From IMG/VR virus record IMGVR_UViG_2537562231_000009, positions 1 to 30,914 of that record: DNA of 30,914 nt; one strand, given 5' to 3'. Below the pieces are notes generated by a model. It was not told the origin of the DNA. It saw only the letters and a list, made by a program, of their open reading frames with translations, and ran no database searches. This document shows positions 2,715-5,568 of the stretch, one piece after another. How positions within the stretch are numbered: the stretch's first letter is position 1; each line of letters starts with the position of its first letter. The DNA is from a virus (lineage: Duplodnaviria > Heunggongvirae > Uroviricota > Caudoviricetes). A program made the translations under genes and the position numbers.

Positions 2715-2991
2715 CGTAGATTCATATTCGAATCGTTGTATATTCACCGCCCTGGTGAGTAATGCGTCCTGCTGATGACGATAATAATGAACCAATAGTT
2801 CGACATTATCAAGAACTATTGGTACGAATTTTGGTGATTTATTAACTCTACGAAGTATGATTCTGATATATAAGGAAATTTATTTTTGAAAATGTGGCTG
2901 ATGAAGGTTATGCGGCAGGGATCATAACTGCATGGTTTAGCGAGTTACATCAATAAATACAATTGGTTATGTTTTTTAGGTGGGCGAACGT

Positions 2992-3022
2992 GAGGCAAAG
3001 AAAACCCGGCGCGGAAGCCGGG
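2992..3022 (-). terminator. Rho-independent terminator closing the cI operon
   Basis: Minus-strand hairpin CCCGGC-TTCCGC-GCCGGG followed by TTTTCTTTG, immediately after the stop at 3031. Confidence 0.65.
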
Positions 3023-3030
3023 TTAATGCG

Positions 3031-3651
3031 TTAATGCTGGGGAGTGATTTTTTTGTTGTCTGTTGGCTGGGTATTTTGTGGCGGCGCTTGCAAAGTGGAA
3101 GGCTGTTGCAAAGGTGCGTGGTCTGACTTTAAAGCTGATACCAGCCCGGGAATCGCAACTATTACAGCGATAATGACACTAAAAATGGCTAATCGTATAG
3201 AAATACCCGACTGAACACCACTAATTGCGGTATTAACCCCTGTTATTTGTCCTTGAATTCCTTCGAATCTCCCATTAATTGCTTTTATATCGCCAGCAGC
3301 GCTATCCATCTTTCCATCGATCTTGGACGATAGAGAGCTTATGGCTGCATTAAGTGATGCAAATTGGACATTAACGCTTTCACGAGATAGAGCCATGTCA
3401 GCCCTAATGGAGGAAGCAATAGACTCCATCTCTGCTTTATTAGCAGCTAAGCGAGCATCAAGTTCCTCTCTGCTGATCGTTCCCACTTCTTCCTCCGTTT
3501 GTGGCGGTTTTATGTAATTATTTTGCACCTTGGTGGGAGAATTATCAAATTCAGCCTCAAAATCAGAACCGCCAACAACCTTCAACCTCCGGCTTTCAGA
3601 TATGTTGGTGTCTTGCTTTCCATGATTATTTAAATTACTGTCGTCACTCAT
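3031..3651 (-). CDS. Coiled-coil protein with one C-terminal transmembrane helix, 206 aa (third gene downstream of cI)
   Basis: Track ORF; long heptad-like region (ELDARLAANKAEMESIASSIRADMALSRE...) followed by hydrophobic IRLAIFSVIIAVIVAIPGLVSAL; ATG overlaps the upstream stop (ATGA). Confidence 0.6.
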   Translation of the reverse strand: MSDDSNLNNHGKQDTNISESRRLKVVGGSDFEAEFDNSPTKVQNNYIKPPQTEEEVGTISREELDARLAANKAEMESIASSIRADMALSRESVNVQFASLNAAISSLSSKIDGKMDSAAGDIKAINGRFEGIQGQITGVNTAISGVQSGISIRLAIFSVIIAVIVAIPGLVSALKSDHAPLQQPSTLQAPPQNTQPTDNKKITPQH

Positions 3652-4136
3652 AATAGCTCTACGGTGAAAAATGATTCATTTTTATGAAGTTCATTTTTAG
3701 GGTCTTCATTATCTTGCAATATCCCTATAACACTATACAGCCCTTTAGCTGGGACCCTAATTTCTTTCAATGTTACTATTACCTGTCCGCCAACCCCTGT
3801 TTCAAAATGGCTATCTTTCGTATCGATGAAAAGTGAAACTGATTCCGAAGAGCCGTCAGGGAATTGAATTTCCTCACCTTTTTTTATAATTAGGTGCGCG
3901 GGGATTACCATAATACCCAAATTATATCTTGAATTTGGTTTCAACCCGATCATACCAACCCTGAAATCAATTGATAGCCGCGCAGGAAATTCATTGCATG
4001 TAAAATTAAGCGTCGGTTGGTTGGGTTCTTCGCTGCTATCAAATGGGGTTATAAAAGATATTCTTTCTAAATTAAGTGCCATAAATTCTCCTGCATCGCT
4101 GTATGCTCTACGAGCATCTCTGCGACCATCCATCAT
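3648..4136 (-). CDS. Hypothetical soluble protein, 162 aa (second gene downstream of cI)
   Basis: Track ORF; low-GC coding sequence; translationally coupled to the 206-aa gene. Confidence 0.6.
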   Translation of the reverse strand: MMDGRRDARRAYSDAGEFMALNLERISFITPFDSSEEPNQPTLNFTCNEFPARLSIDFRVGMIGLKPNSRYNLGIMVIPAHLIIKKGEEIQFPDGSSESVSLFIDTKDSHFETGVGGQVIVTLKEIRVPAKGLYSVIGILQDNEDPKNELHKNESFFTVELL

Positions 4137-4152
4137 CCAAACGTCTCTTCAC

Positions 4153-4494
4153 TCATCCGAAGAAGCAGCAATCCGGGTCAGCACGCACAAGCTCAAGCGC
4201 ATCAGTCAGCGAAAGTTCAGTACTGTACTGATGCCATTTCATATCCTTCCGCATCCAATAGATTTTCCATCTATCCAGAGAACGTATGTACTTGATTCTT
4301 GCTGATGGCAGGATGTTTGTTTCACCTGGGTTGCCCTGCCACACGGGGCGCTGTTCGCCGATATCTATCGTTTGGTCATTGATGCTATAAACAATATCCA
4401 GTTCATTGCGGATATGTTCAGGCGGCCTTATGCTTTCAATGAATTGGTGAACTTCTTTTTTGACCGCTTGATATTCAAGGTCAGTGAACGCCAT
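4153..4494 (-). CDS. Hypothetical protein, 113 aa (first gene downstream of cI)
   Basis: Track ORF; GAGGAGG Shine-Dalgarno upstream of ATG 4494; 60 bp after the cI stop. Confidence 0.6.
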   Translation of the reverse strand: MAFTDLEYQAVKKEVHQFIESIRPPEHIRNELDIVYSINDQTIDIGEQRPVWQGNPGETNILPSARIKYIRSLDRWKIYWMRKDMKWHQYSTELSLTDALELVRADPDCCFFG

Positions 4495-4554
4495 CTATCC
4501 TCCTCACCCAAACGTTTCTTCTGGCCACTGGTTACCAGCTATGTGACGATGAAG

Positions 4555-5262
4555 TCACGAACTTTTCAGCCACTCCCTTGCCTCGATGTCATCCAGATGG
4601 CGAGATTGCTTCAGAATACCAGCTACATACTCCACCTTTGCTACTTGATGATAAGGCAACGTTATAGGCCTGTGATCCTGGTTAATGCTTGTAAATTGGT
4701 ATTCTCCATCTCTGTCATAGCCAAGAACCTTAATCATGTTGTGTCCTTCAACGGTTCTGACAAACACCTCATCACCCGGGAATACTTTGGTGTTAGGCTC
4801 AATGAGTACATATTCTCCTGATTTTATTCTGGGCCACATGCTGTCTCCTTTCACACGAAGACCAAAGGCATCTGGATCATCGCTATAAATTTTGAGCCAC
4901 CCATCGCGCTCTTCGGTCATCTCGATGGCACCATCAACACCAAGAATTGCCTCACCAACCACGCGCACTAACCCTTTTTTTAATTTGCCAACAAATGAAA
5001 GAGTATCTTCATCATTCGCTCCATTTAACGAAGTGCCGTGCTGAAGCCAAACAACATCAACGTTTAGAAATTTCGCAAGCGCATTCATTTTTTCCTGACG
5101 CGGTAAAGACTCAGCATTAAACCATTTGCTAACGCCTTTGGACGAAAGAGAAAGGGCACGGGCTATAGCCATTCCCCTACCATGTTCATCAAGACCAGCT
5201 TCTTTACAGGCTTGCGCTAGCCGCTGGGCGAATTCTTTGCGCACTTTTTCATTCTGAACCAT
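4555..5262 (-). CDS. cI: CI-type prophage repressor (N-terminal HTH, C-terminal S24/LexA-like autopeptidase)
   Basis: HTH segment near the N-terminus; C-terminal GDSMWPRIKSGEYVLIEP Ser-Lys dyad motif; divergent from cro across an operator region; no Shine-Dalgarno before the ATG, as for leaderless lambda cI. Confidence 0.9.
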   Translation of the reverse strand: MVQNEKVRKEFAQRLAQACKEAGLDEHGRGMAIARALSLSSKGVSKWFNAESLPRQEKMNALAKFLNVDVVWLQHGTSLNGANDEDTLSFVGKLKKGLVRVVGEAILGVDGAIEMTEERDGWLKIYSDDPDAFGLRVKGDSMWPRIKSGEYVLIEPNTKVFPGDEVFVRTVEGHNMIKVLGYDRDGEYQFTSINQDHRPITLPYHQVAKVEYVAGILKQSRHLDDIEAREWLKSS

Positions 5263-5340
5263 GAGTACGATACTAAAGCACTTGCAAAAACTTTCAGTTC
5301 AACCATAATACGTACTGAAAGTACGAAAAAGGATATTCCT
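5263..5340. promoter_or_regulatory. OR-like operator/promoter region between cI and cro
   Basis: Three related operator-like elements: CGTACTGAAAGTACG, AAACTTTCAGTTCA and a degenerate ACGATACTAAAGCA copy. Confidence 0.6.
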
Positions 5341-5568
5341 ATGCAAAATCTTGATGAGCCGATTAAAGGTGTCGGCATCCCTGAAGTTGCGAAGGCTTGT
5401 GGAGTTAGCGAAAGGGCTGTCTATAAGTGGCTCAAAAACGGCTTCCTCCCTAAGACTGAGTTTTTTGGGAAAACTAAATACGCATCAAAAATCGAAGAGA
5501 TTTCTGGTGGCAAATATCAAGCAAGCGAAATGCTTGAAATAAGCAAAAAGAACCTTCTGGCTGCATAA
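5341..5568 (+). CDS. cro: Cro-like HTH repressor, 75 aa
   Basis: Divergent from cI; HTH IPEVAKACGVSERAVYKWLKNG; AAGGA Shine-Dalgarno. Confidence 0.8.
   Translation: MQNLDEPIKGVGIPEVAKACGVSERAVYKWLKNGFLPKTEFFGKTKYASKIEEISGGKYQASEMLEISKKNLLAA

Follow-up and report, generated by a model that had tools for sequence, protein, structure and literature searches.

We identified in a 30,914-nucleotide stretch of viral DNA (Caudoviricetes; IMG/VR record IMGVR_UViG_2537562231_000009, positions 1 to 30,914, hereafter the window) a pair of overlapping genes, A and B, that lie, by layout, in the prophage repressor operon and encode a soluble immunoglobulin (Ig)-like protein and a predicted tail-anchored coiled-coil protein of the inner membrane, respectively. 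We tentatively infer that the pair may be a phage-exclusion cassette expressed in the lysogen, in which an exchangeable cytoplasmic sensor (here A) is mounted on a conserved, tail-anchored membrane effector (B). By analogy, A-B would work like the RexAB system of phage lambda while standing outside the RexAB family, and is a good candidate for a new anti-phage defence.

The interval that the cassette occupies, between cI and N, is a known mosaic hotspot with RexAB and BstA, and few prophage regions are more highly transcribed in lysogens (PMC8585504). Positions 2900-5400 of the window, its immunity region, match E. coli O10:H32 NMBU-W12E19 at 100% identity, and the cI/cro/DUF3024 stretch within them matches phage 933W at 99.4%. 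When the window was aligned to 933W (blastn), homology stopped at 3025 and resumed at 4114; the intervening 1088 bp, which contain A, B and the Shine-Dalgarno sequence of A, stand in place of 1694 bp that carry L0083-stk-L0081 in 933W. The Stk protein of 933W is an abortive-infection function against phage HK97 (PMC6356687), and L0083 has no similarity to A. The same cassette recurs at 99.4% identity in phages HK542 and HK244, where the repressor is lambda cI itself and where, as in E. coli PK8277, the gene order is lambda cI-A-B-PL-N. In a blastn comparison of lambda with HK542, homology begins at the cI stop codon and continues rightwards, and on the other side it extends from nutL/OL/PL to the rexB stop. 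The junctions are thus the stop codon of cI and the rexB stop/timm, and A-B replaces rexA-rexB exactly. The immunity regions of HK244 and HK542 were reportedly deposited by Degnan et al. in 2007. Among 5426 complete E. coli genomes, 51 (about 1%) carry the A-B pair, which is always chromosomal and single-copy.

An initial annotation of this DNA, made from the sequence alone, had likened the pair to RexA/RexB. As an analogy of position, the likeness gains from the exact replacement of rexA-rexB in HK542, HK244 and PK8277 and from the replacement of the stk module in the window. It does not extend to descent: we tried A-B as members of the RexAB family and rejected them, since there is no sequence similarity and B has one hydrophobic segment, as against the four transmembrane (TM) helices of RexB.

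Four co-oriented genes and one terminator after B predict a four-gene operon, cI-DUF3024-A-B-terminator (Table 1). The terminator RNA, directly after gene B, folds at -17.3 kcal/mol (z -3.4) and is the sole terminator-like site on the coding strand from cI to the end of A-B. It is homologous to lambda timm and to the annotated tM of 933W, with 91% identity to the lambda region directly below rexB. The placement of the pair in the repressor operon, also proposed in the initial annotation, thus stands in that the genes are co-oriented with no terminator-like site between them, and expression from that operon is a prediction supported by the gene layout. Repressors accompany the pair elsewhere as well. 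A helix-turn-helix (HTH) repressor of the S24 type or the short Phage_CI_repr type lies immediately upstream on the same strand in 15 distinct contexts, and across Citrobacter, Cedecea, Klebsiella, Enterobacter, Salmonella, Yersinia and Pectobacterium the pair is found behind repressors that are unrelated to one another. In the window, one extra gene (DUF3024) intervenes between the repressor and the cassette. This gene has a PADLOC match to PDC-S43 (7.2e-42), a candidate single-gene defence, and is missing from the lambda-immunity carriers HK542 and PK8277; it is therefore separable from the A-B pair rather than a part of it, and looks like a separate moron within the same operon. No mention of DUF3024 was found in the literature searched.

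Gene A almost certainly starts at Met19 (ATG 4082), to judge from sequence comparisons, and its product would have 144 aa rather than the 162 aa given initially. Homologues of A outside E. coli are 141-150 aa long and their alignment begins at Met19, the PHROG profile match starts at residue 21, an AGGAG sequence lies 5 nt ahead of ATG 4082, and the annotations of HK542 and E. coli PK8277 carry the 144-aa form. Further, the cassette-specific DNA ends at 4113, so that the first 8 codons of the 162-aa open reading frame (ORF) are 933W-type flanking sequence. All of this marks the longer ORF as over-extended. The description of the protein as soluble and beta-rich fared better: no hydrophobic window exceeds 1.6 on the Kyte-Doolittle scale, and the AlphaFold2 (AF2) model is an eight-strand all-beta domain (pLDDT 88.8, pTM 0.82). 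This confident model and its significant structural matches to Ig-like domains identify an Ig-like beta-sandwich, a binding-type fold whose structure matches include no catalytic protein. A fold search of A against BFVD returned uncharacterised phage proteins only. Large proteins that match the A profile (P0046, for example, in 22 stretches) are Ig-repeat adhesins (He_PIG, Big_9), which we set aside as a fold-level echo and not as relatives.

The stop codon of A overlaps the start codon of B in the ATGA first reported (TCAT on the plus strand), and hydropathy, a heptad test and AF2 agree with the original description of B as a 206-aa protein with a coiled coil, a single TM helix near the C-terminus and a tail rich in Pro and Gln. 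B has a single strongly hydrophobic segment, with a 19-residue Kyte-Doolittle maximum of 2.71 at residues 154-172; given this single C-terminal TM helix and no signal peptide, an N-in, C-out (tail-anchored) topology is expected. The heptad register of residues 58-150 beats 99.75% of shuffles (p about 0.0025), and indels among homologues span whole heptads. Heptads of the form I-x-G-x-x-x-x make up the C-terminal half of the coil and lead directly into the TM helix. The AF2 model of B, built with 21 homologues, has a disordered N-terminus (residues 1-60) followed by helices at 61-140 and 149-175. Pro and Gln together account for 37.5% of the 32-residue tail.

A coiled coil with one TM helix recalls, in outline only, the i-spanins and XhlA, and the initial annotation had stated that a structural or lysis-related role of the membrane protein would refute its reading. 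Position effectively refutes such a role for B (holin, spanin or XhlA-like, or virion structural), to which we assign next to no probability. The window has its own complete holin-lysozyme-Rz cassette at 20.3-23.1 kb, about 17 kb away and on the other strand, and A-B lie in a lysogeny operon on the strand opposite the late genes. In addition, the TM helix of B is C-terminal and that of i-spanins N-terminal, and B matches no Pfam lysis family at E<=1.

To compare B across its relatives, we surveyed 62 loci in Enterobacterales that encode a B homologue. At all complete-context loci but one, a small co-oriented ORF ends -11 to +18 nt from the B start. These partners belong to at least five classes with no detectable similarity between classes: the A type (37 loci, with a 4-nt overlap with B in 37 of 37), proteins of 92-97 aa, proteins of 98-101 aa, proteins of 112-120 aa with two CxxC pairs, and a 149-aa Salmonella protein. 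The last was considered as a relative of A and kept as a separate class (hhalign probability of 12.8% against the A profile), and partners of class 2 and class 3 show no similarity to each other. A scan of genome contigs found one locus. The core of B (coiled coil and TM helix) is conserved from 'SREEL.A.L.ANKAE' onwards, and the N-terminal 50-90 residues change with the partner class. Next to an A-type partner the N-terminus of B always contains 'R.LKV[VI]GGSDFEAEF', and conservation of the motif at residues 21-36 is limited to B proteins that have an A-type partner. This co-variation suggests that the partner most likely binds the N-terminal segment of B. Further, the distant A homologues P0040 and P0043 are followed by 165-aa B-like proteins (L067 3429-3926 and L069 3450-3947) that share with B the motif 'LKVVGG.D' at the N-terminus and the helix 'SR.EL.ALLKANKAE' and differ from it in the distal coil and TM helix, pointing to B itself being modular. 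The external tail is variable among B homologues and is absent altogether from one of these distant 165-aa proteins; it is thus probably not essential.

In the mechanism that we propose, the partner would serve as a cytoplasmic recognition module docked on the N-terminal peptide of B, possibly through beta-strand addition of 'LKVVGGSDF' to the edge of the A sandwich. B would form a coiled-coil oligomer, perhaps the trimer suggested by its Ile/Val-rich a/d positions, that keeps the TM helices inert. A phage component binding to A would alter the B oligomer such that the TM helices perturb the inner membrane, and the infected cell would then stop supporting phage growth (abortive infection). Partner exchange would change which phage is sensed. 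The idea of a sensor coupled to a membrane effector was already part of the initial annotation, and interchangeable partners, the co-varying N-terminus of B and damaged alleles that affect B only (described below) lend it indirect support. A broader possibility, which we offer with considerable doubt, is that B represents a new effector family of Enterobacterales prophages, a plug-and-play abortive infection platform on which five or more sensor classes sit on matching, co-varying N-terminal peptides. If so, swapping sensor and peptide together would retarget the same B effector to other phages.

Homologues of A and B at 37-79% identity are present in Klebsiella, Enterobacter, Citrobacter, Cedecea and other genera. 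Nonsynonymous divergence (dN) is 0.12-0.65 and synonymous divergence (dS) is saturated or nearly so, being undefined in 6 of 8 comparisons and 1.9 and 3.2 in the other two; with dS saturated, dN/dS ratios are mostly not computable. These dN values against saturated dS and the cross-genus homologues mark A and B as real genes, and the substitution pattern indicates that the pair is under purifying selection. Damaged cassettes were nevertheless found in 4 of the 51 E. coli genomes, with B hit and A intact in both allele types. One is an IS1 insertion that cuts B after about residue 129, with the loss of the Gly-heptads and the TM helix, and the second natural allele has an in-frame deletion of B residues 12-113. 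The truncated form of B also turns up frequently among database proteins (P0002, 49 members). These alleles give a weak hint that B may be the costly component of the pair.

That natural variants inactivate B and never A would also suit an addiction or toxin-antitoxin-like module, with B as the membrane toxin and its upstream partner as cognate antitoxin or chaperone, together stabilising the prophage or the immunity region. Tight translational coupling with the putative neutraliser upstream fits such a module, as does the co-variation of the partner with the B N-terminus in the manner of cognate pairs. We find it decidedly improbable, however, as B is far larger and more elaborate than known membrane toxins and its partners are structurally unrelated, which is unusual for antitoxins of one toxin family. 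The module would also overlap with an exclusion cassette, because many toxin-antitoxin systems are defence systems.

The arguments from slot replacement and partner modularity apply equally to a non-abortive superinfection exclusion that the cell survives, with B as a tether and the partner sequestering at the inner membrane a component of the phage on entry or early in infection (such as an ejected protein, a DNA end or a replication or assembly protein) or blocking genome entry. A is a pure binding fold, the wholly hydrophobic TM helix of B resembles an anchor rather than a pore, and the double-CxxC partner class could bind nucleic acid. We nonetheless regard this alternative as rather unlikely: the external tail of B is short, variable and once missing, which argues against periplasmic contact with the injection apparatus, and the repeated loss of B with A intact suggests a cost that is less expected of a passive anchor.

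ElaB, YqjD and YgaM are host C-tail-anchored coiled-coil proteins that tether ribosomes to the membrane, and the cytoplasmic coiled coil and C-terminal anchor of B resemble them in outline. The pair could accordingly have a physiological role in the prophage or host, either modulating lysogeny or induction or acting in stress or stationary phase as these proteins do. Co-expression with the repressor would suit a lysogeny-linked role, and no defence-family signal was found with PADLOC. A physiological role seems distinctly unlikely all the same, for B has no sequence match to the ElaB/YqjD/YgaM families at E<=1, the characterised occupants of the slot considered here (RexAB, BstA and Stk) all have exclusion functions, and genes in an arms race typically show the kind of exchange and fast divergence seen in the partner classes.

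Several observations weigh against an abortive exclusion cassette with B as its effector. Neither A nor B resembles a known defence protein in PADLOC, Pfam or NCBIfam. The TM helix of B is single and uniformly hydrophobic, which makes it a poor candidate for a classical ion channel, and the B-null alleles probably represent just two independent events. Three of the surveyed loci (L053, L055 and L056) show no obvious co-oriented repressor. Finally, the monomer model of B has low confidence (pLDDT 57.6) and is too poor for use in a fold search, although low confidence is to be expected when an oligomeric coiled coil is modelled as a monomer.

Database searches returned few leads on either protein. 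A matched no Pfam, NCBIfam or PADLOC family at E<=1, the alternative partners had no significant match to a PADLOC-DB v2 model, and A, B and the alternative partners match only PHROGs of unknown function (5893, 5820, 4293). The sub-threshold matches of B are to coiled-coil proteins (Baculo_PEP_C, CCDC90-like, LmuB, SlaB, MakE/MakA, SmhB, sigma-1 and HA2). In PADLOC, B gave nothing beyond coiled-coil noise (LmuB at 0.016; for B homologues, ZorA, PbeC and PDC-S06 at 0.001-0.02). Sequence-profile searches of the PDB found nothing significant, and literature searches found no paper characterising A or B, with HK542 appearing only as a test phage.

Table 1. Features of the predicted repressor operon, of proteins A and B and of related loci. 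Positions are those of the window unless a locus is named.
Feature	Position	Strand	Remarks
cI-type prophage repressor (HTH_3 + Peptidase_S24), 933W immunity type	4555..5262	(-)	Operon gene 1; Pfam S24 4.4e-16, HTH_3 1.2e-5
DUF3024 gene, homologue of 933W L0084	4153..4494	(-)	Operon gene 2; PF11225 2.4e-31
Cassette-specific DNA, differing from 933W (there L0081-stk-L0083)	3026..4113	(-)	blastn, window vs 933W
Annotated ORF of gene A, 162 aa	3648..4136	(-)	
Shine-Dalgarno AGGAG, 5 nt upstream of preferred gene A start	4088..4092	(-)	Sequence
Gene A, 144 aa from Met19, soluble Ig-like beta-sandwich, proposed sensor/adaptor	3648..4082	(-)	
ATGA stop/start overlap of A and B (predicted translational coupling)	3648..3651	(-)	Plus strand TCAT
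Gene B, 206 aa, predicted tail-anchored coiled-coil inner-membrane protein, proposed effector	3031..3651	(-)	phrog_5820 1e-76; 28 homologue clusters
B residues 21-36 (RRLKVVGGSDFEAEFD), N-terminal motif (putative A-docking peptide)	3544..3591	(-)	Co-variation with partner class
B residues 58-150, heptad coiled coil	3202..3480	(-)	Register test; AF2 helix 61-140; whole-heptad indels
B residues 152-174 (I152-L174), single TM helix IRLAIFSVIIAVIVAIPGLVSAL	3130..3198	(-)	Kyte-Doolittle 2.71; AF2 helix 149-175
B residues 175-206, Pro/Gln-rich tail, predicted periplasmic	3034..3129	(-)	6 Pro + 6 Gln of 32
Rho-independent terminator closing the predicted operon	2993..3024 (hairpin 3003-3024)	(-)	8-bp GC-rich stem + T run
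Natural B-null alleles	L065 2485-2898; L066 1501-1815		E. coli CFSAN064035, 90-3040
Lysis cassette	Holin within 20348-20668; lysozyme 21068-21601; Rz 22595-23062	(+)	Rz, PF03245 1.5e-39

Positions 2900-5400 of the window are identical to NZ_CP042892.1, from which the window differs in its tRNAs and between 9 and 31 kb, and the best complete-genome match of the late region (9000-30914) has 95.5% identity over 91%, in a strain with another tRNA set. With identity shown for the immunity region only and a weaker match in the late region, the window comes from a mosaic prophage that is absent from the complete-genome collection. To the left of the cassette, the N gene (2151-2534) is intact (N_peptide 2.1e-15) and is flanked, at the position of 933W L0079, by a 156-aa ORF on the minus strand (1622-2092) with no Pfam family. 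In the nin/Q region, positions 13065-16564 (+) encode a 781-aa N6_Mtase protein with a weak VRR_NUC-like match at its N-terminus, followed by a 364-aa Methylase_S subunit. No restriction subunit was seen with this type-I-like modification and specificity pair, which may be a phage anti-restriction or epigenetic module. Three tRNA genes, Met(CAT), Arg(TCG) and Arg(TCT), precede a TerB-domain ORF (17367-17870) at 17020-17870 (+), and a 617-aa ORF lies at 18450-20303 (+); top genome matches over this region carry the annotation of a SASA family carbohydrate esterase, among others. This is the region in which Stx phages carry stx, and no ORF of 110 aa or more is present that would be fit for an Stx A subunit. 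Inside the lysis cassette, between lysozyme and Rz, is a P22_AR_N/ORF11CD3 antirepressor-like gene (21872-22441, +).

If A-B does act in defence, RexAB would have, at the classic immunity locus of lambda, a replacement with a distinct mechanism, present in about 1% of complete E. coli genomes and in the prophages of ten or more enterobacterial genera. One conserved effector with interchangeable sensors would also make a simple system for studying how a sensor is coupled to a membrane effector, a question that, to our knowledge, 60 years of work on RexAB have not settled. HK542, a laboratory phage of lambda immunity that can be cultivated and has A-B in place of rexAB, offers a near ready-made isogenic comparison with lambda; the natural B-null alleles with A intact are likewise ready-made mutants.

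In ending a coiled coil in one C-terminal TM helix, B is like the DUF1640/CCDC90-like proteins, ElaB/YqjD/YgaM and the archaeal SlaB stalk. The match to PF07798 (DUF1640/CCDC90-like) reaches 12.6 bits (E 0.12) against a gathering score of 33.5 bits, which does not place B in the family, and PF07798 is a 'weak' precomputed match in a distant B-like protein. Similarly, the match to SlaB (E 4.9e-4) scores 19 bits against a 700-bit cut-off. These matches to tail-anchored families are probably compositional, and none of these proteins is known to have, as B does, a coupled gene for a putative sensor. The Gly-heptad/TM region of B also marginally matches the hydrophobic head region of ClyA-family alpha-pore-forming toxins (SmhB 6zz5, E 0.015; MakE, E 0.006; MakA, E 0.18). 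The scores are 10-18 bits against cut-offs of 320-360 bits, and B is half the size of those toxins and has no tail/head helical-bundle model; we treat this marginal resemblance as a lead and not as evidence.

The closest parallels to A-B are the exclusion modules of temperate phages. Like lambda RexAB, the cassette lies between cI and timm (in lambda-immunity phages in exactly the same place), is oriented as cI with presumed co-transcription from PRM, and has the gene for a soluble cytoplasmic protein ahead of that for a membrane protein. RexAB excludes T4 rII, among other phages, with loss of membrane potential. RexA is 279 aa long and RexB, which has four TM helices (PMC8585504), 144 aa, whereas A is a 144-aa Ig-like protein, B is a 206-aa coiled-coil protein with a single TM helix, the two genes overlap by 4 nt, and the partner of B is exchangeable among unrelated classes. 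The gene for BstA of Salmonella phage BTP1 likewise lies downstream of the repressor of its prophage, presumably under the repressor promoter (PMC8585504). Unlike A-B, BstA is one soluble protein that acts at phage replication sites, with an anti-BstA DNA element, and has no homology to the pair. The Stk module of 933W occupies the same interval as A-B in the window, behind the same cI and DUF3024 genes and ahead of the same terminator; Stk is a eukaryote-like Ser/Thr kinase, whereas A-B contains no kinase and A is unlike L0083. Among mycobacteriophages, the prophage defences Butters gp30/gp31 and Sbash gp30/gp31 each join a cytoplasmic and a membrane protein against heterotypic phages; they differ from A-B in their hosts and in their multi-TM membrane partners, and no sequence relation is expected. 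A two-gene exclusion cassette of the repressor operon, composed of a soluble and a membrane protein, is thus an already known kind of system, and what is new relative to the literature searched is both proteins, the single-TM coiled-coil putative effector and the proposed design with interchangeable sensors.

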